A DNA stretch of 64,000 nt from Bacteroidota bacterium (GTDB lineage: Bacteria > Bacteroidota > Bacteroidia > Sphingobacteriales > Sphingobacteriaceae), in NCBI GenBank assembly GCA_040386815.1, contig JAZKET010000034.1, forward strand, positions 61,236 to 125,235, in the 5' to 3' direction. The notes beneath the pieces were generated by a model. The model had not been told where the DNA came from, did not search any database, and was given only the letters and a program-made list of their open reading frames with translations. Positions 2,882 to 25,820 of this stretch are shown in pieces (the first letter of the stretch is position 1; each line of letters starts with the position of its first letter). Position numbers and translations under genes: made by a program.

Positions 2882-2956
2882 ATGTTTTAGGGTGATATAA
2901 AATTTGTAGCAGGTATAAACAAATTGGACTTAGATGTTTTTACATTTGAACTTACA

Positions 2957-3535
2957 ATGTTTAACACCTTTAAAACATACATACAAGCGCAAGCCGACTT
3001 GAGCGACGAAGAAGTACAGCAGATGTATGACCTTGCTACGGAACGTTCGCTTCGTCGTAAGGAAATGCTTTTGCAGGAAGGTGAAATTTGCCGCTACAAA
3101 GTATTTATTGCCAAAGGCCTGCTGCGCACCTATCGCATCAAGGAAGACGGCAGCGAACACATCATCCAATTCTCGCCCGAAAACGGCTGGACCGTTGAAC
3201 CGGAGAGTTATGATAAGGTAATACCAACCGCCTACAACATTGACGCGCTTGAGGCAAGCGAGTTACTGCTATGGACAAAAAAAGACTTTGTTGATCTGCA
3301 AGAGAGCATCCCAAAACTGAAAAGCTTTTCGCAACGCGTCATATCTAATAGCACCTACATTATTCGCGAACGGGTATACAGCGCCATCAGCTCATCTGCC
3401 GAAGAAAAGTACGACGAATTTGTAAAACAACACCCCAGTCTTTTTGCCCGTGTGCCGCTGCACATGGTAGCCTCGTACCTGGGCGTATCGCGCGAAACTT
3501 TGAGCCGTATCCGCATCGCGCAAGTCGGCCGCTAA
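2957..3535 (+). CDS. Crp/Fnr family transcriptional regulator
   Basis: cNMP-binding beta-roll (LLQEGEICRYKVFIAKGLLRTY) and C-terminal HTH (VPLHMVASYLGVSRETLSRIR). The ATG at 2957 is preferred over the TTG at 2924. Confidence 0.92.
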   Translation: MFNTFKTYIQAQADLSDEEVQQMYDLATERSLRRKEMLLQEGEICRYKVFIAKGLLRTYRIKEDGSEHIIQFSPENGWTVEPESYDKVIPTAYNIDALEASELLLWTKKDFVDLQESIPKLKSFSQRVISNSTYIIRERVYSAISSSAEEKYDEFVKQHPSLFARVPLHMVASYLGVSRETLSRIRIAQVGR

Positions 3536-11644: not shown

Positions 11645-12250
11645 ATGCGCATAGGCACAAATATTTATAAAATGTTTTTTTTGTGGGGATCTCTGGTCTT
11701 CATAACAACGTCAGCATCGGCACAAAACCGCCTGCAAGAGTTTGACGACCGGATAATGATAGACCTGGCAGAGCATCGCACACCGCAGAAAACCGGGTTC
11801 ATGATGTTCATGTCAGACACTTACCGTTACGGCGATATTGGCATACCTGCGGGCCTGCTTATTGCCGGCGTAGCCACTAACGACCGCAATATGCGCGAGA
11901 ACGCGGGCTATATTGCCAGTAGCACAGCTATATCGTGGGGCCTTACCTTTTTAATAAAACATATTGTAAAACGCCCGCGCCCCTTTGTACAAAATCTAAA
12001 AATTGTCCCGGTTTATAAAGCGGGCAGTACGTCGTTCCCTTCGGGACATACATCAACAACCATCGCCACTGCTACAGCGCTTTCTATGGCCTATCCTAAA
12101 TGGTACGTTATTGCCCCGGCATTTATGTGGGCGGGTACTGTAGGGTATTCGCGTATGTATTTAGGGGTGCATTACCCTACCGATGTTGGCGCGGGTGCTT
12201 TGTTGGGTGCGGGTACTGCGTTGAGTATGTCGTTTATGCGGGTGCGGTAG
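11645..12250 (+). CDS. PAP2 family phosphatase
   Basis: KHIVKRPRP, SFPSGH, SRMYLGVHYPTDV. Confidence 0.93.
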   Translation: MRIGTNIYKMFFLWGSLVFITTSASAQNRLQEFDDRIMIDLAEHRTPQKTGFMMFMSDTYRYGDIGIPAGLLIAGVATNDRNMRENAGYIASSTAISWGLTFLIKHIVKRPRPFVQNLKIVPVYKAGSTSFPSGHTSTTIATATALSMAYPKWYVIAPAFMWAGTVGYSRMYLGVHYPTDVGAGALLGAGTALSMSFMRVR

Positions 12251-12519: not shown

Positions 12520-14883
12520 ATGTTCCCGCAATTCTTCGACAAACCCTTTCGTTTACAACTATCGTTCGATAAAATTATCGAGGGCTTAGAAGATACTGCC
12601 TCAAACGATAGCGGCTGGCGTAGTATGAATGCCCATTCGTTATTAGAGCAGGTTGCCAAACACCCTGAACTACGCGACGGTCTTGTTAATGAAGAGCAGG
12701 TTGCTGTTAACGAAGAACTGATTGCCGAATTACTTGCAGACCTGTTTCCGAAAGCCTTAACGCTAAACGAAATAAAGGCTGTAAGCATTCCTTTTCAAAG
12801 CCTCATTTTTAATCATACCCAACGCTTTAAAAATATTTTGAAAGATGCGGGGTCTGATTTTGAGATCAATATCCGCGATTTTGGCGATCAGCAGTTGTAT
12901 GTAATGAGCTGCTGTATCATCCTTAATGAATTTTATAACACCAGGCTTGATTTTAGCAAGCCCATGTTTTATGATATACCTACGGCTAACGGCGTTATGC
13001 GCCATTACCGCATTTTATATAATGCCGATTTTCTGGAGATTTTAGAGACCGACAATTCGCCTAAGCTAACACAGGCAGATATTGATGAGTTGATGGATAA
13101 CTTTGACGATGTTGAACTGTGGAGGCAAAAAATACCACCGGGCAGCTACCTTATAAAAGGCTTTGGCTTAATGACTTTGGTTGATGTTACTGTTGAGAGC
13201 GCGCTGTCAACCCTTAAAAGTAATTTACTGGCCAACTATTCATCGCCAGAGGTTAAAGAAAGTTTGTTGTCAATTTTTAGGTCGATATATGGTATACCCG
13301 ATATGCGCATGGGCTTTACCTTGTTTGACAAAAACGAAGAGAAGTTTTTAAACGTACGTTTCGGGCCCGATTTTCATAGCTTTTTACTGCCCTACCAAAA
13401 GGCGCACGATACAGAAAAGATCCTGTGCGATAATTCTTTTAATTGCCTGGTGCATGAGCATCATTATTTCGCGGTGTCTGATGTGGCGCGTTATGTTGAG
13501 GAAAACCCTGAAGATAACTTCGGTAAGCATTTCCTTGAACAAGGCATTATGAGTTTCATCCTTGCACCAGTAATTAAGGATGGTGTTTTATTAGGGATAC
13601 TAGAGCTGGTATCGCCACGCATACGCGAGCTGAACAGCGTTACTGCCAACAAGCTGGATATTGTAATGCCGTTTCTGGTAGATACAGTAGACCGCAAGAT
13701 GAATGAAATGCAGAACCGCGTGCGGGCTGTCATTCAAAACTACTACACCACGCTGCACCCCAGCGTTTACTGGAAATTCCGTCGCGAAGCGCAAAATTAT
13801 ATCGAGCATAACAATAACAGTTTGGCTTACACGCTAAAAGAGATCAAATTTAAAGACGTTTATCCGCTTTACGGGCAGGTTGATATCAGCGATTCCTCTC
13901 TCACCCGTAACCTGAGTGTGAGTAATGATCTGGGGAACCACATGGCACGTTTGATCCAATTGTTAAAAGAGATCAATAAGGCCGGCAATAAACCGCACGT
14001 AACGCAAATATTGTTCGACCTTACTACTTTCTCTGACGAGTTAAAGCAGAGCATACGTGCGGATACAGAGCAGTTTATACAGCATTATATTGAGGACAAG
14101 GTGCACCCGGTGCTTACCGCCGCTGCCGTAAACGCTAATTTTAAAATACAGGTAGATAATTACTTTAAACAAGCCGATAGTTTAAAGGGCGATTTCCACG
14201 CTAACCGCCGTAATTACGATAAAACACTGTCGCTGATCAATCAAAAACTGGCTGGTATTCTGGACCATCGCCAGGCCGAGATCCAGGAGTTTTACCCGCA
14301 TTATTATGAACGCTTCAAAACCGATGGGGTTGAGCACAATATGTACATTGGCGAAACTATTGCACCTGATCGGGAATTTACGTTGAAGGATCTGCACCGT
14401 TTACGCTTATGGCAAATGCGGGTAATTGCCGAAATGGAAATTGAGCAGTATGATCTGAAAAGCTTGTTGCCATATTCGTTAGGTGTAACGTCGCTGATAC
14501 TGGTTTTCAGTACGCCGATAGCTATCCGTTTCAGAATGGATGAGAAACATTTTGATGTGGACGGCGCTTACAATATCCGCTACGAAGTAATTAAAAAGCG
14601 GATTGATAAAGCTCATATTAAAGAAAGCACCGAGCGTATTACCAAGCAAGGAAAGATCACCATCATCTACTCAAAAGCCGAAGAAGAAACAGAGTACATG
14701 GGCTATATCAAAATTCTGCAAGACGAAGGCGTACTGGCCGACGATGTAGAACATTTTGAGGTAGAAGAACTACAAGGCGTAGCCGGCCTAAAAGCCTTGC
14801 GGGTTGGCCTTATCCACCATGATCAAAACCTGCTGGCGCACCGTGCCGCAAGCTATGACAAGCTGTACGATAGGATAAGTTAA
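12520..14883 (+). CDS. GAF domain protein with a putative divergent class III nucleotidyl cyclase C-terminal domain
   Basis: GAF-like segment SFILAPVIKDGVLLGILELVS. C-terminal motifs LYGQVDISDSS, RFKTDGV, KHFDVDGAYN, GKITII and ELQGV follow the cyclase order. The cyclase call is inference. Confidence 0.8.
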   Translation: MFPQFFDKPFRLQLSFDKIIEGLEDTASNDSGWRSMNAHSLLEQVAKHPELRDGLVNEEQVAVNEELIAELLADLFPKALTLNEIKAVSIPFQSLIFNHTQRFKNILKDAGSDFEINIRDFGDQQLYVMSCCIILNEFYNTRLDFSKPMFYDIPTANGVMRHYRILYNADFLEILETDNSPKLTQADIDELMDNFDDVELWRQKIPPGSYLIKGFGLMTLVDVTVESALSTLKSNLLANYSSPEVKESLLSIFRSIYGIPDMRMGFTLFDKNEEKFLNVRFGPDFHSFLLPYQKAHDTEKILCDNSFNCLVHEHHYFAVSDVARYVEENPEDNFGKHFLEQGIMSFILAPVIKDGVLLGILELVSPRIRELNSVTANKLDIVMPFLVDTVDRKMNEMQNRVRAVIQNYYTTLHPSVYWKFRREAQNYIEHNNNSLAYTLKEIKFKDVYPLYGQVDISDSSLTRNLSVSNDLGNHMARLIQLLKEINKAGNKPHVTQILFDLTTFSDELKQSIRADTEQFIQHYIEDKVHPVLTAAAVNANFKIQVDNYFKQADSLKGDFHANRRNYDKTLSLINQKLAGILDHRQAEIQEFYPHYYERFKTDGVEHNMYIGETIAPDREFTLKDLHRLRLWQMRVIAEMEIEQYDLKSLLPYSLGVTSLILVFSTPIAIRFRMDEKHFDVDGAYNIRYEVIKKRIDKAHIKESTERITKQGKITIIYSKAEEETEYMGYIKILQDEGVLADDVEHFEVEELQGVAGLKALRVGLIHHDQNLLAHRAASYDKLYDRIS

Positions 14884-14897
14884 ACTCTTTACTTTGT

Positions 14898-14985
14898 TGT
14901 CATTTCGAAACGAGGAACGAGTGAGAAATCTTATCCTCGCGATTTGGCATCCGTATAAGATCTCTCGCTATGCTTCGAAATGACA
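14898..14985. repeat. Palindromic repeat TGTCATTTCGAA...GAGAAATCT...AGATCTCTC...TTCGAAATGACA
   Basis: 12-bp terminal inverted repeat plus inner arms, between convergent genes; may act as a terminator. Confidence 0.75.
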
Positions 14986-14998
14986 TTTTGTTTTAACC

Positions 14999-17536
14999 TC
15001 AAAATCTAAACCCAGCCGTGATATAAGGATACGCGCCCTCTTTTGAGAAACCAACCACACCCTGTATCAATATCAGCTGCGCCGGTAAAAAAAAGACACC
15101 ACCGCCATAACCCATGTGCCAGGTATCAGAGTTTTCGCCCGGCGACCATACACGGCCGACATCATCAAACCCAACCAGCCCAACAGTGCCCGGCAACAGG
15201 TACGACGTAAAATCAAACAGCTTTACTCTTACCTCAAAATTGTTAAAGGCCATGGTTTTTCCGGTGAAGCGCCACTGATAAAAGCCACGTAAATTGTTGT
15301 TACCGCCCAATTTTAATTGCTGATAGTACGACGCGTTACCTACAGTTGTGCCTATACCTGTACGGTTGCCAAACACCAGTTTATAATTATCGCCGGGATC
15401 ATACAGAAAGCTGAAGTCAGACTCTATCTGCCCATAATTATGCGCATCGGGGTTTAGTGATTTCATGGCGCTGAAACTGGTTGTCCATAAAATACCCGAG
15501 TGTTGCACAATGTTCTTATCGCGTGTGTCTAAAGTAAATGCGCCAACTATACCCACATTACCCTGGCCGGCAAACACATTTTCTTTCGGATGAGCAAGGT
15601 CGTAATCTTTCAAAAAACGGGTTTGGTTATCGTCCCTGTCGCCGTTGTAGTATTGGGCAGAGACACCAGCGCTTACCGTCCAGTTGTTATCATAAGTATG
15701 CCGCAAGCGGATATCGGCATTTATCAGGTTATAAACGTTGCGGTAATAACGAATGCGTTTGCCCTCTTCATTTACAAAAACGCTGTTGTTTCCCACACCA
15801 AAAAAGTTGCTTACAAAGTTTGGCCCCCGGTTGGTTATGTTTACTATCAGGTCGTTCTTTTTTACAGCTTGCTTAAACTCGCCCTCGTAATTTAACCACA
15901 ATGAGCTTACGCCAAGGCCATAGTTTGCCGTAAAACTTTGCCTAAACGCATACGGATCTTTCTTAAAACCCTGCTTTTGCCATACCAGTTTGGTGATAAG
16001 CTGTAAGCCGTAGTCTTTATTATAACTACCTAAAAACAGTGGCTGCAAAAAGTCATACTTAAAATTCTTGTTCAAGTATTTATTCACCATCGTATCCGTT
16101 GACAAACGGCGGCGGGCGAAACCGCTTTCAGGCAGGTTGTTCTTCTCATCGCTCCGGTCATAAATGTACCGGTTGCCGCGGCCGGTGATATTGCTGTCAA
16201 CCATAAAGTTGTCCTTATCATCGCCACCCACCATCCTGATCTTTATAGGCGAACTGTTTTTGCCATGCACCGCAAAATAATCTTCATTACCCTGCCCGTA
16301 CAGGCGCACTTCTTCGGTAACTTTAGGGTCGAAAGTGCGCTCGTAAATAACATTGTCGCGCTGGCCCTCTTTGTTTATTTTGGTGATGGTTACCTTAACA
16401 CTGCCATCCTGCTGGTTGGTGATGTCAAAATATTCGTGCTTATCTGTGCCCGGAATATCTACTTTATTTGATATAAAGCGGTAATACCTCATTGCTTGCC
16501 GCTTAAGCACATTACGGCGTGCAATCATTTTGCTGACGATCTCCTGTCCGCTTATTTTATAAATATTAGGCGGCATTAATTTTATCGCCCTGGTAATCAC
16601 CTCATCGGTAAGCTTGGTTTGTACAATATTGATCTGCTCTTCCCAATCTTTTTCATTCAGGCCATTTAAAAAGAAACGGTCGAAATTACGCGCGTTCAAA
16701 TTCCAGCGTCTTACAGAGCGGATATGATCTTCATAACTCTGAAATTTCGACATCAGCAAATGCCTTGACACCAGCCAGGGCATAACGCCTGATGTGCTGT
16801 AATACACCTGGTCCCTATCCCTTGGTATAGGCTCATAAACACTGCCTTTATCGGTTTTTATCTTCTCCCAGCGCCATTGATCCTCGTGGCGGTCCCAGTC
16901 GCCCAGCAGCATATCCAGCAGGCGGGCACGCAGCACCGTTTTCTGATTTACGCTGTTATCGTTATCCTCTTTTAATTTTTCGAAGGCTTTGTCGGTGTTA
17001 TCTGTTTTCTTCGCGTCAAGCGGCTCTCGTTCTTCAAACAAAAACACCTGGTTGGCAAAGTCTTTTCTAAACTCGCCCAGGGCAGGGTCATCGGGTACGA
17101 AAACAATCTCGGGATTAGCGTGCGGCACGTTCAACGCTTTTGCCAGCGGCGGTACGGTAACAGCAGCAAAAGGGTGTTCGGTAACTATCTGATCATCCAA
17201 AATAGAGGCCGCGATGGTTTTTCTCAGCGTTGGTGGCAACACGCGTTCAGGGTATTTCTGGATAGAACGCAGCACCCACTCCTGCCCGGTTTTATCTTCC
17301 AGACGTACAGATTTGGTTTGCATACCGCCGCCACGCTCTGTAGCTTTCAGTCCTCCTTTTTCTTTTGTGATACGAAACACGCGCATTTTAACCGGCGCCG
17401 CCCAAAGCTTGCGGTAACTTTCGCCACTATCATACCTGGGTTCAATAGCCACGGTAATGCTGTCGCCTTTTATCTGCGCAAACGTTTTTGCAGATATGGC
17501 CAAGAGGAAAATCAAAAGCAGGTAACGTTTTCCCAT
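14999..17536 (-). CDS. Omp85 (BamA/TamA-like) outer-membrane protein with an N-terminal atypical-kinase-like domain
   Basis: Signal peptide; GGGMQT, GDWDRHEDQ and PRDRDQ kinase-like motifs; GxGxDxF beta-repeats; barrel with LGGNNNLRGF lid-loop motif and terminal GFRF. Confidence 0.82.
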   Translation of the reverse strand: MGKRYLLLIFLLAISAKTFAQIKGDSITVAIEPRYDSGESYRKLWAAPVKMRVFRITKEKGGLKATERGGGMQTKSVRLEDKTGQEWVLRSIQKYPERVLPPTLRKTIAASILDDQIVTEHPFAAVTVPPLAKALNVPHANPEIVFVPDDPALGEFRKDFANQVFLFEEREPLDAKKTDNTDKAFEKLKEDNDNSVNQKTVLRARLLDMLLGDWDRHEDQWRWEKIKTDKGSVYEPIPRDRDQVYYSTSGVMPWLVSRHLLMSKFQSYEDHIRSVRRWNLNARNFDRFFLNGLNEKDWEEQINIVQTKLTDEVITRAIKLMPPNIYKISGQEIVSKMIARRNVLKRQAMRYYRFISNKVDIPGTDKHEYFDITNQQDGSVKVTITKINKEGQRDNVIYERTFDPKVTEEVRLYGQGNEDYFAVHGKNSSPIKIRMVGGDDKDNFMVDSNITGRGNRYIYDRSDEKNNLPESGFARRRLSTDTMVNKYLNKNFKYDFLQPLFLGSYNKDYGLQLITKLVWQKQGFKKDPYAFRQSFTANYGLGVSSLWLNYEGEFKQAVKKNDLIVNITNRGPNFVSNFFGVGNNSVFVNEEGKRIRYYRNVYNLINADIRLRHTYDNNWTVSAGVSAQYYNGDRDDNQTRFLKDYDLAHPKENVFAGQGNVGIVGAFTLDTRDKNIVQHSGILWTTSFSAMKSLNPDAHNYGQIESDFSFLYDPGDNYKLVFGNRTGIGTTVGNASYYQQLKLGGNNNLRGFYQWRFTGKTMAFNNFEVRVKLFDFTSYLLPGTVGLVGFDDVGRVWSPGENSDTWHMGYGGGVFFLPAQLILIQGVVGFSKEGAYPYITAGFRF

Positions 17537-17541
17537 AGGGG

Positions 17542-18405
17542 CTATTTTTTAAAAGTAAATTTCAACACGTTACCGGGCGTTATCTCATCCCCCTCGTTGC
17601 TGATGTATAAATTATGCTGATTATCAAAAGCCAAACCTTCCGGCTGTAAAAACAGCGCCGGATTAAGCGAATAGACCCCTTTTACTTTAAACGCGGCATC
17701 GGCTATCACCAATAATTTATTGATAGATGCTACAATGAACCACTCACCCGTACCTGGATTTTTTGCAAATGCCGAGGGGCGAAACGCGAATTTCTTTTTG
17801 TTTACCTGTGCTTCAATAGGCTTAGTGTCTATACTAAAGCCACCGGCTGGCGTAACCACGCCGTTAGCTGCCAGTTTAAACTTGTAGCCGGCCGTAGTTC
17901 GGACTTTATCGCCGCCACAATCTTTACACAATATATAAAGCAGGCCGGCTTTTTCATCGCCATACATGCTCTCATACTCGCCTTTGGGTAACAGGTCTTT
18001 TACCTCAACCACATTTGCTGCTGCTTCAGACCATACCTGGTTAAACGGAAAAATATATAGTGTGCCGTTACTCTTAAGCACTACAATCTGGTTGCCCAGT
18101 ATGGTAATATCTTCGTAATCGCCGCTTTTAGCAAAACGGCTGTATTTAGGCGTTTCTTTGCTGCCGGGTTTAAAGTAAAACACTTTCCCTTCTTCATCCT
18201 GTTCGGCAAACAGCATATCCGGCTTGCCATTATGAAATGTAATGCCCGATATCTCGGCCAACGCGTCAGACATATTGTCCTTTACCGGACTATTCAGATC
18301 ATACCCCGGCGGAGTAGGATAGGTCTTTTTTTCAAAACAAGCTATACCAGTTAACATGGCTAATACGATACAAATTATGGCTATAAATCCTTTTAAACCT
18401 TTCAT
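17542..18405 (-). CDS. SdiA-regulated/YjiK-like beta-propeller lipoprotein
   Basis: GIAC lipobox; EISGIT, AEQDEEG, DYEDIT, QPEGLAFD. Confidence 0.8.
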   Translation of the reverse strand: MKGLKGFIAIICIVLAMLTGIACFEKKTYPTPPGYDLNSPVKDNMSDALAEISGITFHNGKPDMLFAEQDEEGKVFYFKPGSKETPKYSRFAKSGDYEDITILGNQIVVLKSNGTLYIFPFNQVWSEAAANVVEVKDLLPKGEYESMYGDEKAGLLYILCKDCGGDKVRTTAGYKFKLAANGVVTPAGGFSIDTKPIEAQVNKKKFAFRPSAFAKNPGTGEWFIVASINKLLVIADAAFKVKGVYSLNPALFLQPEGLAFDNQHNLYISNEGDEITPGNVLKFTFKK

Positions 18406-20420
18406 GCTTTACTTTTCAAATATTGATAAACCCAGCGTTGCGATTGTACAGCAGGCTCAGTTACTTCAACAGGTACATTTTCTATTTTTTCATTAAGCCA
18501 TACGGCTTGTACGTTATCCGTTAGCTGAATGTTAATGATATCCATCACCTCCTGCTTAATCTCCTTATCATACACCGGGAAACACACCTCAACCCTACGA
18601 TATACATTGCGGTTCATCCAGTCTGCCGAACCCATAAAAACCTCGGGCTGCCCGTTATTCTCAAAAACAAACACGCGGCCATGCTCCAGGTATCTATCAA
18701 CAATCCGTTTAATGGTAATGTTTTCGCTCATCGCTTTTGCGCCCGGTATCAGGCGGCAAATGCTGCGCACAATCAACGACACCTTAACCCCTGCATTTGA
18801 TGCATCGTACAGTTTACTGATAAGCTTGCTTTCCTCCAGGTTGTTTAATTTTATGGTGATGGCCGCAGGCAAACCTTTTTGGGCATTGACAATCTCGCGG
18901 TCTATCAGCTCAAAAAAGCGTTGCTGTAAACCAAACTGCGCTACCAGCAAATGCTCAAATTTTATCAGATCTGCCGATTTTGGCTTTTCGCGTTTACGCA
19001 GAAAAATAAACAGCAACTCCACCTCGCGCAGTATGGCCTTGTTGGCTGTCATCAATATATGGTCGGTGTAAAACTCGGCCGTATTCTCATTAAAGTTGCC
19101 GGTTGATAGCAGGCCATAATATTTTATCCGGTCATTCACCCGGCGCTTTACCAGCGCTACCTTGGCATGTACCTTTAGTGCGGTTACGCTATAAATAATC
19201 TCGGCGCCGGCGGCTTTAAGGCGGTTGGCCCATTTAATGTTGTTAGCCTCGTCAAAACGAGCTTTCAACTCTATCAGCACTGTAACCTTTTTACCTGCGG
19301 ATGCGGCGTTTACCAACGCGTTAACAATCCTTGAATCTTTTGCTACGCGATACAGGGTGATATAGATCTCTTCTACCGCCTCATCCAAAGCGGCCGCGTT
19401 AAAGAAACGCAGAATGGTATCGTACGATTGATAAGGCGTATTTATCAGCAGATCTTTGCGTTCTATCTGATCAAAAATGGCTTCGTCGGCGCTTAATCGT
19501 TTATATATCGTCGGCCATTTATCGTACTTCAAATTTGCCTGACTTAGCGGGAAAGCAAACAGATCTTTCAGGTTATGATAATTGCCGCCCTCCACCAGGC
19601 TCGATGGCTCTATCGACCAGCTTTCGCAAACCATCTGCAAAATATTTTCGGGGATACCGGGCTGGTGCAAAAAGCGGGTGGCTATACCCAGATCGCGCTT
19701 TTGCAATTGTTCTTCCACCTGCTCGGCCAGGTCGCCGGGATACTCGTCTTTCAGGTCAAGTTCCGCGTCGCGGGTTATCTTGAAGGCGTAGCAGCCGGTA
19801 ACGGCCTCATCTCTAAATAGCTTATCCAAATTATAACGGATAATATCATCTAAAAACAAGATGTAGGTTTTGTCGCCCTCGTCAACCTTATAAAACCTTG
19901 GCAAATCCGGGGGGATATTTAGCACCAGTACTTTCTCTTCGTCCCCGCCCAGGGTAATTAAAAAATACAGCTCGTTATTTTGGGGGAAGAATTTCTTTTT
20001 GGGCGATAGTTTAAAGGGGCGCAAAAAGGCCATCACCTGGCTAAAAAAATAATCGTTCAGCTGGTCTACCAATTTGGCCGGAGGCGGCTGATTAATTAAC
20101 AGGTGAATGTTACTCTCCTTCAACTGCGCTATCACTTTGGTTATGCCTTTACCAAAATCATGCTGTTGCTGCATAATCAGTTTTTGCGCTACCGAAAGCG
20201 GATCATCAACCACACTGGTGGTAGTGGTTAGTTTGCCCAGCTTATCCATAGCCTGCAGCACGGGCATACGCACCCGGTAAAATTCATCCAGGTTCGACGA
20301 GAATATCGCCATAAAATTTACGCGCTCCAGCAGCGGCACATCACTTTGCAAAGCCGTTTGCAAAATGCGCCCGTTAAAGGTGAGCCAGCTAAGGTCGCGG
20401 TCAAAAAAAGCGTAAGCCAT
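18402..20420 (-). CDS. ppk1: Polyphosphate kinase 1
   Basis: DRDLSWLTFNGRIL, SSNLDEFYRVR, TLYRV, IELKARFDEANN, LKVHAK, TGNFN, DRYLEHGR, SADWMNRN. Confidence 0.97.
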   Translation of the reverse strand: MAYAFFDRDLSWLTFNGRILQTALQSDVPLLERVNFMAIFSSNLDEFYRVRMPVLQAMDKLGKLTTTTSVVDDPLSVAQKLIMQQQHDFGKGITKVIAQLKESNIHLLINQPPPAKLVDQLNDYFFSQVMAFLRPFKLSPKKKFFPQNNELYFLITLGGDEEKVLVLNIPPDLPRFYKVDEGDKTYILFLDDIIRYNLDKLFRDEAVTGCYAFKITRDAELDLKDEYPGDLAEQVEEQLQKRDLGIATRFLHQPGIPENILQMVCESWSIEPSSLVEGGNYHNLKDLFAFPLSQANLKYDKWPTIYKRLSADEAIFDQIERKDLLINTPYQSYDTILRFFNAAALDEAVEEIYITLYRVAKDSRIVNALVNAASAGKKVTVLIELKARFDEANNIKWANRLKAAGAEIIYSVTALKVHAKVALVKRRVNDRIKYYGLLSTGNFNENTAEFYTDHILMTANKAILREVELLFIFLRKREKPKSADLIKFEHLLVAQFGLQQRFFELIDREIVNAQKGLPAAITIKLNNLEESKLISKLYDASNAGVKVSLIVRSICRLIPGAKAMSENITIKRIVDRYLEHGRVFVFENNGQPEVFMGSADWMNRNVYRRVEVCFPVYDKEIKQEVMDIINIQLTDNVQAVWLNEKIENVPVEVTEPAVQSQRWVYQYLKSKA

Positions 20421-20421
20421 G

Positions 20422-21696
20422 TTAGTTAGCTAAAGGCGCGTCGTTATGCAGCGTTGAGGCTATAATATATGCCGCCACAGCAATGATCAACCCAAACATA
20501 AATATGTTATAAGCTACTCTTAAAAAGCGATACTTCCGGCCCAACACCACGCCCTGGCTGTATACGTCCTTTATCAGCGTGCCGTATAAAAAGCCTCGGT
20601 CATCCATCACTTTAAGCATGCCGGCGGTATACTCTTCCAACCCCATTTTATAAAAATTACCAAAGAATAGCAGGTTAACCTTTTTATCGTCAATATCCTG
20701 CGTAGTAAAAGTCCCTTCGGGGATAGCCGGGCGGGTAGCCAGTATCGAAAATATCATAGACAGCAAACTCACCGTCAGCAATATAAAACTCGGTATAGCC
20801 AGGAATGCGTTTTCCTCTAGCTTACGCAACACCAAACTGATAATGGCCGACAGGATAATAGAGTTAACCGTAATTAAAATATGAGCCTTATTATCGGCCA
20901 TATCGCTCAAGCGCTGGTTATTGCCCGATGTTATTCTGAACATGGTTTCAATGCCTTTGTCCGGCTTGTTTTTTTTCTCTTCTTTCTTTTTATCTTTTTT
21001 CTCGTCGGCAATAACTACTACCGGCACAGCTTGCACGGCAGCCTCGGTCTTGCTTTCTGCTTTGGTTTCCTTTGCAGCCTCTGGCTTATCTTCGGCAATG
21101 GTTTCCTGTTGTTTTTTCATTAGTTTGTCCAGGTTTTTTTTCTGCTGATCATGCAGTAACAACTGTGCGTAATCTGTAAAATAGGTATGTGTCTGTAGCA
21201 GCTCAATATTCTTCTGGCGCCAATGGTCCTTATCAATATCCAGGTGTTTTATAATATTAAACTCCTTGCGCAGCAGCTTGCTTTTGTCGGCAAAGTCATC
21301 GGTACCTAAATGGAACAGATCAGCATCGCACATAATTTGCTGCAGCTTACCGGTAGGTTTTTGAGGGATACGGGTGGCAAGAATACAATCATGCACTTTG
21401 GCAATTACCGCTTCATCAACCTTAAGGTGTTGTAAATGCGACACGGCCAGTTCGGCACCGGCAGCTTCGTGGTCGGCTTTGTCAATCAGGTAGCCAATAT
21501 CATGAAACCATGCGGCGGTTACCACCACAAAAAAATCTTCGTTGTTAAGCTGGTAATGGTTGGCAATTTGCGTGGCGGCGTCAACAACGCCTTTGGTATG
21601 TTCCAGATCATGGTACAGCAAATCGGCATCATGATGGCCGTCAAAATACCTTAAAACGTATTGCTTAACATCGCTTAATAATTGCTGATAATTCAT
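20422..21696 (-). CDS. HD-domain phosphohydrolase fused to a Pycsar-effector-like (PycTM/DUF5706) membrane domain
   Basis: HD motifs YHDLEHT, AWFHDIGY and DADLFHLG; charged linker; MADNKAHILITVN, NLLFFGNF and KYRFLRVAY with three TM helices. ATG 21696 is preferred over GTG 21720. Confidence 0.88.
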   Translation of the reverse strand: MNYQQLLSDVKQYVLRYFDGHHDADLLYHDLEHTKGVVDAATQIANHYQLNNEDFFVVVTAAWFHDIGYLIDKADHEAAGAELAVSHLQHLKVDEAVIAKVHDCILATRIPQKPTGKLQQIMCDADLFHLGTDDFADKSKLLRKEFNIIKHLDIDKDHWRQKNIELLQTHTYFTDYAQLLLHDQQKKNLDKLMKKQQETIAEDKPEAAKETKAESKTEAAVQAVPVVVIADEKKDKKKEEKKNKPDKGIETMFRITSGNNQRLSDMADNKAHILITVNSIILSAIISLVLRKLEENAFLAIPSFILLTVSLLSMIFSILATRPAIPEGTFTTQDIDDKKVNLLFFGNFYKMGLEEYTAGMLKVMDDRGFLYGTLIKDVYSQGVVLGRKYRFLRVAYNIFMFGLIIAVAAYIIASTLHNDAPLAN

Positions 21697-21721
21697 AGAA
21701 AAGGTGTTGGTGTTGCTCACC

Positions 21722-21729
21722 CAAATTTA
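21722..21729 (-). promoter_or_regulatory. -7 element TAAATTTG for the HD-PycTM/ppk1 operon
   Basis: Matches TAnnTTTG and implies a transcription start downstream of the GTG, supporting ATG 21696. No clear -33 box. Confidence 0.5.
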
Positions 21730-21841
21730 ATGTTTATATCTGTATTTTGTTTGGTGGATGGGTGTTTTTGTGGGATGAACGTTTAAACATATTTTAAAGA
21801 CGGTTTAAACCAAGCGATGTTACCTAACATATATTTCAGCA

Positions 21842-22019
21842 AGGCTGACCCAGAGGGTCAAAACCTTTGTAGCAAAAAAAGACAAAGCTGTTATGACCCG
21901 GAGGGTCTACCCTTAACGTAAGCATTGATCCCTGTAAAACCTGCACAACGGTAGCCCCGCTGGGGCAAAAAAGAAACTGTAAATTTTTCTACAAAGGTTT
22001 TGACCCTCCGGGTCAGCCT
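21842..22019. repeat. REP/REPIN-like element A (about 36-bp terminal inverted repeats)
   Basis: AGGCTGACCCAGAGGGTCAAAACCTTTGTAGCAAAA versus the reverse complement of TTTTTCTACAAAGGTTTTGACCCTCCGGGTCAGCCT (2 mismatches); internal TGACCCGGAGGGTC copy; GTAG motifs. Confidence 0.85.
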
Positions 22020-22043
22020 ATTATTGCGGTCCGGTATTATAAT

Positions 22044-22265
22044 AGGCGTGTTCGAAACATTTTAAAAGCGACTTTTAAAAGGCGTAGCCTCGACAAATAT
22101 TGTAGCCGCGGTTTTCAACCCGTGGTATACATCATCCATCGAAAGCGAGTGCCATCGGCACGGCCCGCATTATATGGATCGTGCCGATGGCACTCGTTTC
22201 TTGTGTTTGATTTTTTCGCCGGGTTGAAACCCGGCGCTACAATATGAGTCGAGCCGCTGGCTCTT
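22044..22265. repeat. REP-like element B, copy 1 (222 bp)
   Basis: Nested hairpins including GAGTGCCATCGGCACG...CGTGCCGATGGCACTC; near-identical to 22570-22791. Confidence 0.9.
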
Positions 22266-22273
22266 TATTTACG

Positions 22274-22541
22274 GCGGTCCTCGATTACAAATTCAGACCA
22301 CCTTCAGCCACTCTGCTGCTACCAAGCTGCTCCAGAGGAGCAAAATGTCGGTAGAAAAATCCTCTTAAATCTATATTTCGCGCCGTTAGGTGCGAAACTT
22401 AGGCGACCAACGAAACCCCTGATCATAGCGGATAAGTTATGTACCTACGGCACATATAAATTACTTTATATTATTTGCTACCGACATTAAACCCCTACGG
22501 GGTTATCTTCAAATGGCTAAGGGTGTTGATGTTATCGCTTC
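22274..22541. repeat. REP-like element C, copy 1
   Basis: AATGTCGGTAG...CTACCGACATT arms and CCCCTACGGGG; near-identical to 22887-23152. Confidence 0.9.
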
Positions 22542-22569
22542 GTTTTTATGTTAGTCGGGATTTATAATC

Positions 22570-22791
22570 AGGCGTGTCCGAAACATTTTAAAAGCGACTT
22601 TTTAAGAGGCGTAGCTTCGACAAATATTGTAGCCACGGGTTTTAACCCGTGGTATTTGTAATCTATAGAAGATGGAGTGCCATCGGCACGGCCCATTTAA
22701 ATGGATCGTGCCGATGGCACTCTGTTTTGTGTTTAATTTTTTCGCCGGGTTAAAACCCGGCGCTATAATATGTGTCGAGCCGCTGGCTCTT
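22570..22791. repeat. REP-like element B, copy 2
   Basis: Direct repeat of 22044-22265 with scattered substitutions. Confidence 0.9.
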
Positions 22792-22886
22792 ATTTTCAAT
22801 TTGCAAGGTTTCGAACACTCCTGATTTGCAATCCGTGTATCCCAAAGAATAAAATCACGGCCCGGGATTACAAATTCCCACTTACC

Positions 22887-23152
22887 GCGGTCCGCGATTA
22901 CAAATCCGAACCAACTTCATGACTCTGCTGCTACCAAGCTGCTCCAGCGGAGCAAAATGTCGGTAGAAAAATCTCCCACATCTATATCCCGCGCCGTTAG
23001 GTGCGAAACTTAGGCGACTAACGAAACCCTTGATCATAGCGGATAAGTTATGTACCTACGGCACATATAAATTGCTGATATTATTTGCTACCGACATTAA
23101 ACCCCTACGGGGTTACCTTCAAGATGGGTAAGAATGTTAATGTTATTGCTTC
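22887..23152. repeat. REP-like element C, copy 2 (end overlaps the CHAT stop codon)
   Basis: Direct repeat of 22274-22541. Confidence 0.88.
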
Positions 23153-25766
23153 ATTTGTCTACGGATAACAAGCCATCCCCCCAAACCGAACACAATCGCC
23201 GCAATAGCAATTTGCAAAGGCACCCACGAATTTGCCGCCGGCAAATTCACCACCTCATCTGCCCCGGTTAACACCAGCGTATCCCAATAATATGGCAGGT
23301 ACAATGCATCGGCAGACTGCGCATGGTTTAGCCAGTTCAGCTTGGCATTGTGCAGGGCGGCAGCTGTGCTTTGGCTCTTCGTTAAACCCGCGTACATATC
23401 CGCCGTAATGCGCGCCACCGCATCGTCATTAACATTCCATAACCCCGATACCGTGGCCGCGGTACCTATAGCTATAAAACCACGCGACAGGCTGATAATA
23501 CCCTCGCCTTGTGCCAATGTGCCGTCGCCGGTGCGGCAGGCGCTTAGCACTACCAGGTTAGGCTTACGGGAACGCGCCAGCAGTTCAAACAAAAACAGTT
23601 TTTCTTTACCAAAATCAAGCGTAGGTTCATGGTTGGGGCCAGATAGGTAGGCGTGCGTGCTGATGTGCAGGGCAGCCGAATTTTCAAACGACTTAAAAAA
23701 CGAAACAGTATTTACGTCGTCATCATACAAATAATTGCCTTCAACCAATTTCTCAATAGCGGCCGACTCCTGTTTTACGGCCATAATGGGTTTATCGTCG
23801 GCACTGTTATGCGTCATAAACAAACCGCTAAAACTGCCATTGTATTTAATGAGAAAGCGTAACTCACAGTTAACTGCCTGATAAGGTAGGGCCATAGCGA
23901 CGGGGCGGGTTGAAACTTGCTATCGGTTATCAAGCCATCAAAAGACAAATAACCCAAAACATCATCAGGCACAATGCACAGTTTTTCATTTTTCTTTAGG
24001 GCGATATTTGCAAACAGCGTTTTATAAATAGCGTTCGACTGTTGAAAAAACACCTTAGGCGCGTTCACCATTCCAGCCGGACCATTACGATAAAAGGTAT
24101 CTACAAAACCGGTTACCTGCTTGCGGAATTGTTTTGCCCCATCTATGCGGTTAATTGCCCACGCCGACCGGTTTTTAACTTCAATAACATACAAAGCTTC
24201 CGCCCCGAAAAAGAACTCCAATACATGCGCATCAACAGGCAATTTCTTCAATATTTCATCTGCCGATGCTACCGAACCAACGGCCGTTTCACGATATTTT
24301 TTATTGAGCAGGGCCAAATCAAACTTCAAGGCATCTATCTTTTTTTGATATTCGGCCGGGTTGTTTTCCGTCATCATCAAACGCTCATTATAGCTAATGG
24401 CGCGTTCCATATCCAGCTTGCGACGCAGGGCTGCGTCGTTCTTGCCAGCCGCCAGGTTGTGGTAGGTTTTCTGTAGGTCATCTGCCAGCGTACGCGCCTT
24501 GGTTTGTTCGCTCACCGCTAATATCAGGTTTAGATATTTTGGCTGTTTGGTTTGCGCGTAAAGGTTGTAGGCTATTTCAATGGTTTCTTCGGCCAGTTCT
24601 TTTCCCTCTTTTTGCAGGCGTTCCTTGGTTTTATTGTCGGCAAATTCCTTGCGCATTTTATCAGTAGCCAACAGCGCATAGCGCATGTTTTCAAGCGCCA
24701 AAGCAGGCTGCTTTAGCGCCATGTAGGTAAGCGCCTTTTCATGGAAGATGTCAACCAGCTTATTCTCGCCATAAATTTTGTTTGCCGGGGTGATGTTCTG
24801 CACTGTGTTAATGCGCATAATCTGCAACGCGCTGTTTAAACAATTTAGCGCGTTTTGCCATTGCCCCTGTAAACGACATATCTTACCCAGTTGTGTAGTC
24901 AGATAGGCTTTTTCGCGCTGCCTGCCGTCAGCATAATATTTGTTAAGCAATTGCAGCGCTGTTTTAAACTCAGCTTGCGACTTATTTAGCTGGTTGGACT
25001 GCAAATAAATATTACCCAACGTAGTGTGGCTGCCCGTTAAACCATAAGCAGTTTCGCTGTCTATATTTTTTCGTGTAGCGATGTTTTTAATAAGCAGGGC
25101 TTCGGCTTGCTTTAACTCATTTTTTTGGAGCAGTATATCGGCCAGGGTATTATTCAGATTAAACCGTACTTGTGGGTCTTGCACCAGTGCCAGTCCTTTA
25201 GCTACACTTTCCCCGGCGTCATCATATCGCTCAATATTGTAGTATGATATGGCCACGTTGCTGTACAGGGCGGCTACCTTATCGGCCTCGGCAGTTTTGT
25301 TAAGCGCCGCAATGGTGTTTTGCTGTATAAAAATAGCCCGCTCATAATCGCCAAGGCGGGCGTAGTTATTGCCCAGCGGCTTTACTATGTATTCGGCAAA
25401 ATCAAACGCCGCCACGTTATGCTTTTTATAAAACGAATAAGCATCCTCATAACTGTTGATAGATTGCAAAATGTCGCCGGCCTGTAGTTGGTTATAGCCC
25501 TGGGTGGTTAGCAAGGTAAGCCAGGCTATTTGTTCATCGGCAGTCTTGGGTTGTCGCCAGGCTTGTTTGCGGGTGTCTGTTAAAAACGATTGCTGATTGG
25601 GATTAGCATTTGCGTAATCAATGTTGGCGTACAGCCATTCGGTTAAATTGTCCTGTTTTTTTAGCCCATTTAATATAGATTTTTTCGGATTTTTCTGGGC
25701 AAAACTCTGCAAACTGCAAAAGAACAGGCAAAAAAAAAGGCTGATTTTCCTAGGATTGATGAGCAT
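23143..25766 (-). pseudogene. TPR-CHAT (caspase-like) protease split by a frameshift near 23840
   Basis: ORF 25784/25766-23814 has a signal peptide, TPRs and the start of CHAT (IVPDDVLGYLSFDGL). ORF 23895-23143 has the rest, with catalytic LHISTHA and VVLSAC, SLW-like SGLWNV, PYYW and a C-terminal TM helix. The two frames overlap by 82 bp. Confidence 0.8.
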
Positions 25767-25820
25767 TGGCAGGATGTACGGCAATGCTAAAATAGGGAAT
25801 TTTCGCCAGTAAACGCGGGG

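Follow-up and report, generated by a model that had tools for sequence, protein, structure and literature searches.

We analysed a 64,000-nucleotide stretch of DNA (the window) from a soil bacterium of the Bacteroidota (family Sphingobacteriaceae; GenBank assembly GCA_040386815.1, contig JAZKET010000034.1, positions 61,236 to 125,235), in which five genes between positions 12520 and 21720 had been proposed, from the letters and their translations alone, to form a cyclic-nucleotide system. The listing of open reading frames (ORFs) confirmed all five genes at the coordinates of the original prediction, together with the convergence of one of them on an array of the other four. The single plus-strand gene (12520-14883) encodes a 787-residue protein, a predicted cytoplasmic sensor-enzyme with an N-terminal domain (aa 1-220), a GAF domain, signalling helices, and a domain with the fold of the class III cyclases. 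The minus-strand quartet begins with a gene for a 432-residue protein (20422-21720), which we call HD-PycTM, in which an HD phosphohydrolase is joined by a Lys/Glu-rich linker to a three-transmembrane (3TM) module of the PycTM (pJV1-SpdB3) type. This is followed by a second paralogue of PPK1 (672 aa; 18402-20420), a lipoprotein that probably belongs to the SdiA-regulated/phytase-like beta-propeller family (287 aa; 17542-18405), and a secreted kinase-Omp85-like protein (845 aa; 14999-17536). The HD-PycTM and PPK1 genes are separated by 1 nt, the PPK1 and lipoprotein genes overlap by 4 nt, and the lipoprotein and kinase-Omp85 genes are separated by 5 nt, a tight packing that is operon-like. The gene for the 787-residue protein converges on the quartet with 115 nt between them. 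Among the domains originally named, PPK1, HD, and PycTM were recovered by sequence, the cyclase and the kinase at the level of fold alone, and Omp85 and SdiA with scores below the curated cut-offs.

The 787-residue protein is encoded by a single-copy gene in its own genome and belongs to a large family, with 1385 cluster representatives at E <= 0.001 (clusters at 50% identity). The best annotation among these is "GAF domain-containing", and the others are hypothetical proteins. The GAF domain itself (aa 222-403; 13183..13728, plus strand) is recognized by fold and by family profile. It matched 3k2n with Z 14.6-14.8 and 168/177 residues aligned in the VIA fold search; by sequence, a single hidden Markov model gave a weak match (E 0.03) and the family profile matched GAF chains of the PDB with E 2e-4. 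Relatives of the protein in the Atlas and in the loci L155, L157, and L159 carry the Pfam 38.1 tag PF27174 "YeeD", and the family could overlap with that entry. The family might also turn out to be that of AAC12946.1, the class V adenylate cyclase of Prevotella ruminicola, an enzyme that has received little study.

The C-terminal part of the protein (aa 441-767; 13840..14820, plus strand) has, in an AlphaFold2 (AF2) model, the catalytic-domain fold of a class III nucleotidyl cyclase. The model, which used an alignment of 128 relatives with identities down to 28%, had a predicted local distance difference test score (pLDDT) of 94 and a predicted template-modelling score (pTM) of 0.84. In the VIA-wide search of 48,161 representative chains, which is independent of Foldseek, all of the C-terminal matches among the top 50 were class III cyclases, and no other fold family appeared for this part of the chain. 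The Z scores were 10.2-11.9, with root-mean-square deviations of 3.0-3.9 over 164-212 aligned residues, or about 82-98% of each cyclase chain. The uridylate cyclase 8jsz (Z 11.9, 212 aa) stood with Cya2 (Z 11.4, 183/201 residues), CyaB (Z 11.3, 183/196), CyaC (Z 11.2), a eukaryotic guanylate cyclase (Z 10.9, 179/183), the C1 domain of mammalian adenylate cyclase (Z 10.5, 182/189), and Rv1900c (Z 10.2, 164/167). Whole-chain Foldseek searches with the model matched 6fht and soluble guanylate cyclase. The order of sensor, signalling helix, and catalytic domain is that of the sensor-linked class III cyclases, such as the phytochrome- and GAF-linked enzymes CyaB1 and Cya2 and soluble guanylate cyclase. 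Unlike these, the 787-residue family lies beyond profile detection, the spacing of its catalytic motifs is changed, and its first strand is split off by a helical bundle. This insert of about 130 residues (aa 459-590; 13894-14289, plus strand) separates beta1 (aa 443-456) from the beta2-beta3 hairpin (aa 595-610). The name "GAF-cyclase" used in the original prediction is right as a statement of fold, because the model superposes on class III cyclases while sequence similarity to them is undetectable. A homodimer prediction with two copies of residues 405-787 scored 0.00, which weighs neither for nor against the assignment.

Conserved residues collect on the elements of this fold. Invariant in the 128 sequences are Asp455, Ser459, Asp470, Asp602, Gly603, Lys692, Arg694, Lys697, and Arg706, with Asp455 and Ser459 lying where beta1 ends and the Asp602-Gly603 pair in the turn of the hairpin. 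The family also shares the stretch R-x-D-E-K-x-F-D-V-D-G-x-Y-N-x-R-Y-E-x-x-K-K-R-x-D-K. In a collinear but non-significant hhalign alignment, Asp455 falls on the first metal-binding Asp of the canonical cyclases. Judged by this conservation, it is plausible that the protein is catalytically active. A 1383-residue "fusion" in genome G185 was rejected as an artefact of the long open frames of a high-GC genome.

The neighbour of the cyclase-fold protein carries the module to which cyclic-nucleotide cyclases of defence systems signal. The C-terminal 3TM module of HD-PycTM (aa 273-422; 20455..20904, minus strand) matches PF18967 with E 8.6e-35 over positions 1-107 of 107, and the PADLOC PycTM model PDLC02364 with E 9.8e-17 over positions 21-154 of 160. 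By the PADLOC models, these C-terminal 150 residues make up an entire PycTM or CBASS 2TM effector, and three hydrophobic helices can be seen by eye in the sequence. Databases label the protein automatically as "Pycsar system effector family". The pJV1-SpdB3 3TM family is a recurrent partner and effector of antiphage cyclic nucleoside monophosphate (cNMP) cyclases, and one of its members, PucTM, forms a hexameric cylinder (bioRxiv 10.64898/2026.08.12.744502). The HD catalytic core (aa 37-134; 21319..21612, minus strand; Pfam HD, E 5e-6) belongs to the HD family, since the metal-site residues of the H...HD...D pattern are conserved in the 97 orthologues. At least 95% of these orthologues keep His37, His41, His73-Asp74, Asp132, and Asp134, and many polar positions in the 3TM module are conserved to the same level. 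The best solved relatives of the domain are uncharacterized HD hydrolases (2pq7, 3b57, and YedJ; E 7e-9 to 6e-8). The true start of HD-PycTM is likely the ATG at 21696 (residue 9).

Gene neighbourhoods were surveyed from both ends of the pair. For the first survey, HD-PycTM was sought in 150 genomes of the Sphingobacteriaceae, the family of this bacterium, and 40 of its loci were retrieved. A cyclase-fold homologue was present in 31/40, either an orthologue (43-53% identity) or a paralogue (23-31%), in varying orientation; PPK1 came straight after HD-PycTM in 30/40, and the propeller was found in 33/40. The second survey started from the cyclase-fold protein and covered 80 orthologous loci from the Flavobacteriales, Sphingobacteriales, Chitinophagales, and Cytophagales, with a reach of 10 kb. 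HD-PycTM was found in 60 of these 80 loci, including those of Flavobacterium, Flagellimonas, and Mucilaginibacter, and was almost always the convergent next gene. The same loci contained a metallophosphoesterase (53/80), an Omp85 protein (50/80), and the propeller (40/80). Two unrelated genes in a 4-Mb genome are estimated to lie within 10 kb of each other by chance in about 0.5% of cases. The linkage of the cyclase-fold protein with HD-PycTM is far above this level, and it survives both rearrangement and replacement by a paralogue. Co-occurrence of the two proteins beyond chance, the lack of which the original prediction had named among the grounds that would refute it, is found in several lineages of the Bacteroidota.

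The conserved unit differs from the five genes originally listed. In most of the relatives' loci there is a secreted calcineurin-like metallophosphoesterase, either separate (L019:12745-13845) or fused ahead of the kinase-Omp85 protein to give a chain of about 1200 residues (L005:6208-9834). It was not found in the genome studied here by one query (the genome is 93% complete), and it is also missing from several loci of the same genus. The conserved core is the cyclase-fold protein, HD-PycTM, the metallophosphoesterase fused or adjacent to the kinase-Omp85 protein, and the propeller lipoprotein. PPK1 is a lineage-specific addition to this cluster and not part of its core. The operon PPK1 is itself a member of its family, with a TIGR03705 score of 674.9 bits (cut-off 465.85) and all of the PP_kinase_N, middle, C1, and C2 domains. 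A second PPK1 of 682 residues, 40% identical to it, is encoded elsewhere in the genome with a Ppx-GppA gene directly after it (G000 contig C113:18500-24500; L166). Since the canonical ppk1-ppx pair lies there, the operon copy is an extra paralogue.

Members of the cyclase-fold family were found in 18/121 sampled genomes of the phylum; the class of this bacterium accounts for 13 of these (33 sampled), and the remaining 5 belong to other classes. A possible reach of the family outside the Bacteroidota is an Atlas lead. The cluster is syntenic across orders, identities track relatedness, and the genes are mostly single copy. The full core occurs in another class (L165), and a divergent pair of HD-PycTM and cyclase-fold genes was seen in L160. 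Enzymes of phosphate metabolism recur around the pair: a PPK1 paralogue, the metallophosphoesterase, PAP2, His_Phos_1, and the phytase-like propeller. Distant relatives show this as well: the gene order in L159 is HD-PycTM, His_Phos_1, PPK1, and two cyclase-fold genes, and L155 combines PPK1 and a Phytase-like gene with a pair of cyclase-fold genes. The cyclase-fold paralogues of these two loci are in tandem (L155:5446-10496 and L159:10001-15064), and an ECF sigma factor gene is also found nearby. Full-text searches of the literature found no description of the cluster.

The kinase-Omp85 protein and the lipoprotein place part of the cluster at the cell envelope. A signal peptide can be seen by eye in the former, followed by a protein-kinase-like domain (aa 22-356; 16469-17473, minus strand) and an Omp85-like C-terminal barrel (aa 593-845; 15002-15760, minus strand). 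Sequence profiles of Pfam and NCBIfam gave no kinase match for the N-terminus. An AF2 model of this part (pLDDT 87.5) shows the two lobes of a kinase fold, with one Asp in the catalytic loop and another for metal binding, and it matches CotH (Z 14.2), PI4KII-alpha (13.9), CtkA (12.6), and HipA (11.2); the CtkA match was also found by Foldseek (E 5e-6). The motifs GGGxQ, DWDRHxDQW, and PRDRDQ are invariant in 57 sequences. The domain shares with the atypical kinases CotH, PI4K type II, and CtkA a fold that aligns with Z 12.6-14.2 over 228-271 residues, and we take its catalytic loop, DRHxDQW, to resemble that of PI4KII. It differs from them in having Gln in place of the usual catalytic-loop Asn and, as predicted from the sequence, in being exported and tethered to an outer-membrane barrel.

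The barrel matches NF047779 in part (E 2.3e-23; 83 bits, where the curated cut-off is 200), PF01103 did not match at E <= 0.01, and neighbours in the Atlas are named as members of the BamA/TamA family. In type Vd autotransporters (PlpD-like proteins), an N-terminal enzyme passenger, a patatin lipase, is followed by an Omp85-type barrel. The kinase-Omp85 protein has the same order of an enzyme-type domain and an Omp85-like barrel, to which its relatives of about 1200 residues add the metallophosphoesterase; in contrast to the type Vd proteins, its passenger has a CotH/PI4KII-like kinase fold, PF01103 is not matched, and the topology is a predicted one. The propeller lipoprotein has a lipobox, LTGIAC, recognized by eye, and scores 19.8 bits against the SdiA-regulated profile PF06977, just under the cut-off of 21. 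Its family is homologous to a family of neighbours in the Flavobacteriia (hhalign 98.9%, E 4e-17), of which one member (L051) scores 30.3 bits, over the PF06977 cut-off, and which also has a weak Phytase-like match. Sequence searches of the PDB with the Omp85-like and propeller proteins gave nothing useful.

The locus is best read as a chromosomal, vertically conserved second-messenger module of the Bacteroidota. Our leading interpretation, which we hold tentatively, is that of a housekeeping, Pycsar-like second-messenger circuit for the physiology of surface phospho-esters and polyphosphate, and not for phage defence. It is suggested by the combination of a Pycsar-like pair of writer and receiver with an envelope module and with phosphate enzymes that are repeatedly found around it. 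In such a circuit the cytoplasmic sensor-enzyme would make a nucleotide-derived signal, perhaps a cyclic nucleotide, from a nucleoside triphosphate once its sensor domains are occupied. The signal would act on the neighbouring inner-membrane HD-3TM protein through the 3TM module, and the fused HD hydrolase would either degrade the signal or be the regulated output. The pair is tied genetically to the envelope module, comprising the secreted kinase-like domain on its Omp85-type barrel, usually the metallophosphoesterase, and the phytase-like propeller lipoprotein, with a dedicated PPK1 paralogue added in the Sphingobacteriaceae. Such a circuit would most likely tune the processing of surface phospho-esters and the storage of polyphosphate. 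The folds, the domain identities, the conserved residues of catalytic type, and the linkage of the genes are observations, whereas the synthesis of a cyclic nucleotide, its sensing by the 3TM module, the substrate of the HD domain, and the role in phosphate physiology are proposals. The original prediction had offered phosphate or stress physiology as one of two possible roles, and the recurrence of PPK1, phosphatases, and surface proteins fits that choice.

The writer and receiver logic is shared with the Pycsar and Pucsar systems, in which the gene for a protein of class III cyclase fold likewise lies beside one for a pJV1-SpdB3/PF18967 3TM protein. The cluster described here differs from them in several respects. 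Its cyclase-fold protein has an N-terminal GAF sensor and the 130-residue insert and matches neither PycC nor PF00211; its 3TM module shares a chain with an HD hydrolase; and its genes are convergent or lie within a conserved envelope/polyphosphate cluster of four to six genes whose distribution looks vertical and not island-like. The components are of known kinds. What is new is a branch of the cyclase fold that is an orphan by sequence, the fusion with HD, and the envelope and polyphosphate context.

Should the interpretation be right, a large family (more than 1300 clusters at 50% identity) would join the class III cyclases with a membership that is invisible to sequence profiles. The PycTM 3TM module, which is not known in any role but that of a suicide effector of phage defence, would also serve a conserved housekeeping circuit, and second-messenger signalling in the Bacteroidota, which is poorly charted, would be tied to polyphosphate and to phosphate chemistry at the cell surface. 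The cluster would also bring to light a kinase-fold domain that is exported and carried by an outer-membrane barrel, raising the question of its phosphoryl donor. Direct testing is possible because the system is present in the genetically tractable Flavobacterium johnsoniae (locus L053).

Several observations weigh against this interpretation. The first group concerns the writer, for which the class III fold and the invariant acidic residues speak. PF00211 matched 0/58 family members at E <= 1, and the 787-residue protein itself had no match at E <= 10. No PADLOC model, PycC included, matched it at E <= 0.1, and no cyclase match was obtained with Pfam (E 10), NCBIfam, PADLOC, or phmmer and profile searches of the PDB. 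In hhalign comparisons with 30 cyclase domains from the Bacteroidota, whether the helical insert was kept or removed, P was about 0.06-0.18 (best 0.059). Asp602 lies in K-T-D-G and not in K-x-x-G-D, which displaces it by two positions from the Gly-Asp of the canonical cyclases, and Asn685 and Arg687, each about 95% conserved, have the spacing N-x-R in place of the canonical N-x-x-x-R. As for the eraser of the original prediction, the metal site of the HD domain is conserved, but its similarity to cyclic-nucleotide phosphodiesterases is marginal, with class I phosphodiesterases matching at E >= 0.03 and in the motif region alone. The putative reader has the same 3TM module as the Pycsar and Pucsar effectors. 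The second group concerns linkage. For 20/80 of the cyclase-fold orthologues there was no HD-PycTM within 10 kb, several distant relatives of the cyclase-fold protein stand alone, PPK1 occurred in only 4/80 loci of the second survey and is not in the Flavobacteriia cluster, and the related genomes surveyed are non-independent samples.

The points about the writer are also those on which the strongest alternative draws, namely that the cyclase-fold domain does not cyclize nucleotides. It may have become a pseudo-enzyme, may act as a regulatory scaffold, or may be of the palm type and catalyse another reaction on a phosphorylated substrate. The linkage would then be that of genes in one phosphate regulon, with no second messenger involved. 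The missing sequence similarity to cyclases, the non-canonical positions at which the second Asp and the Asn/Arg pair stand, the large helical insert within the fold, and the dense set of phosphatases around the locus would all be consistent with this. Catalysis is nevertheless favoured by the gathering of 16 invariant residues, most of them charged, on the elements of the cyclase fold, and the partner protein has exactly the module to which cNMP cyclases signal. We consider this alternative unlikely, though worth keeping in mind.

A second alternative gives PPK1 a central place. The cluster could be a trans-envelope conduit for a phosphoryl donor or polyphosphate, in which PPK1 would make polyphosphate at the membrane and a hexameric HD-3TM cylinder would pass this, or a nucleotide, to the periplasm or surface for use by the kinase-like domain. 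The metallophosphoesterase and the propeller would trim the product, and the cyclase-fold protein would gate the conduit. The HD-3TM and PPK1 genes are 1 nt apart here, adjacent in 30/40 of the family's loci, and linked again in L159 with His_Phos_1 between them; the PPK1 of the operon comes in addition to the canonical ppk1-ppx pair; a kinase fold that lies beyond the cytoplasm has to be supplied with a phosphoryl donor; and the related PucTM forms a hexameric cylinder. The rarity of PPK1 in the second survey (4/80 loci) and its absence from the Flavobacteriia cluster count against a conduit that depends on it, and both the conduction of polyanions by 3TM cylinders and any placing of the kinase-like domain on one or the other face of the outer membrane are suppositions. 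As a wholly inferential account of the cluster, the conduit is in our view quite improbable. A bolder combination of this conduit with the second messenger, a cyclic-nucleotide-gated phosphoryl-transfer machine spanning the envelope, in which the orphan cyclase branch would control a hexameric HD-3TM conduit that carries polyphosphate from the dedicated PPK1, or a nucleotide, over the inner membrane to fuel the extracytoplasmic CotH/PI4K-like kinase on its Omp85 barrel, is in our estimate a long shot. Bacteria would then have their own version of a process in which polyphosphate synthesis is coupled to translocation.

The other role offered by the original prediction, a non-canonical anti-phage defence, which we picture as a Pycsar variant whose GAF-regulated cyclase would sense infection and activate the HD-3TM protein to kill or arrest the cell, could draw on the match of the PycTM module to PADLOC Pycsar and CBASS effector models, on the Pycsar uridylate cyclase 8jsz (Z 11.9) being tied as the best structural match, and on a cyclase-effector adjacency that mirrors Pycsar and Pucsar, but we regard it as very unlikely because the cluster is syntenic across orders and mostly single copy on the chromosome, its identities follow relatedness, its neighbours are polyphosphate kinase and envelope phosphoesterases and not defence genes, PADLOC matches nothing in it besides the HD-PycTM protein, and its prevalence in the class, about 40% of the genomes sampled, is higher than would be usual for systems of the Pycsar type.

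The cluster may have one further part in this genus. A PAP2 phosphatase gene (11645..12250, plus strand; Pfam PAP2, E 7e-23) precedes the cyclase-fold gene at a short distance and in the same orientation, and this neighbour is shared with the loci L003, L004, L006, L043, L049, and L058. The sole canonical class III cyclase of the genome (PF00211) sits on another contig. An ORF of the Crp/Fnr type with a cNMP_binding domain is present in the window at 2924-3535 (plus strand), 9 kb from the cluster, and is one of eight such domains in the genome.

Upstream of HD-PycTM there is a gene-free spacer of 1.4 kb (21721-23142) that consists of hairpin-rich modules in tandem duplication (period about 526-613 nt, 84-98% identity). 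A palindromic module of about 190 nt within it has at least 15 more copies on other contigs of the genome and for this reason looks like an element of the miniature inverted-repeat transposable element (MITE) or repetitive extragenic palindromic (REP) type. Beyond the spacer, a TPR ORF (23814-25784, minus strand) and a CHAT ORF (23143-23895, minus strand) overlap by 82 nt. The latter corresponds to the C-terminal two-thirds of the CHAT profile, and the two ORFs (23143-25784) are probably one frameshifted TPR-CHAT gene. Past about 30 kb, the GC content of the window drops from about 0.45 to 0.36-0.40, and the part from about 28000 to 56000 may be a compositionally distinct region.

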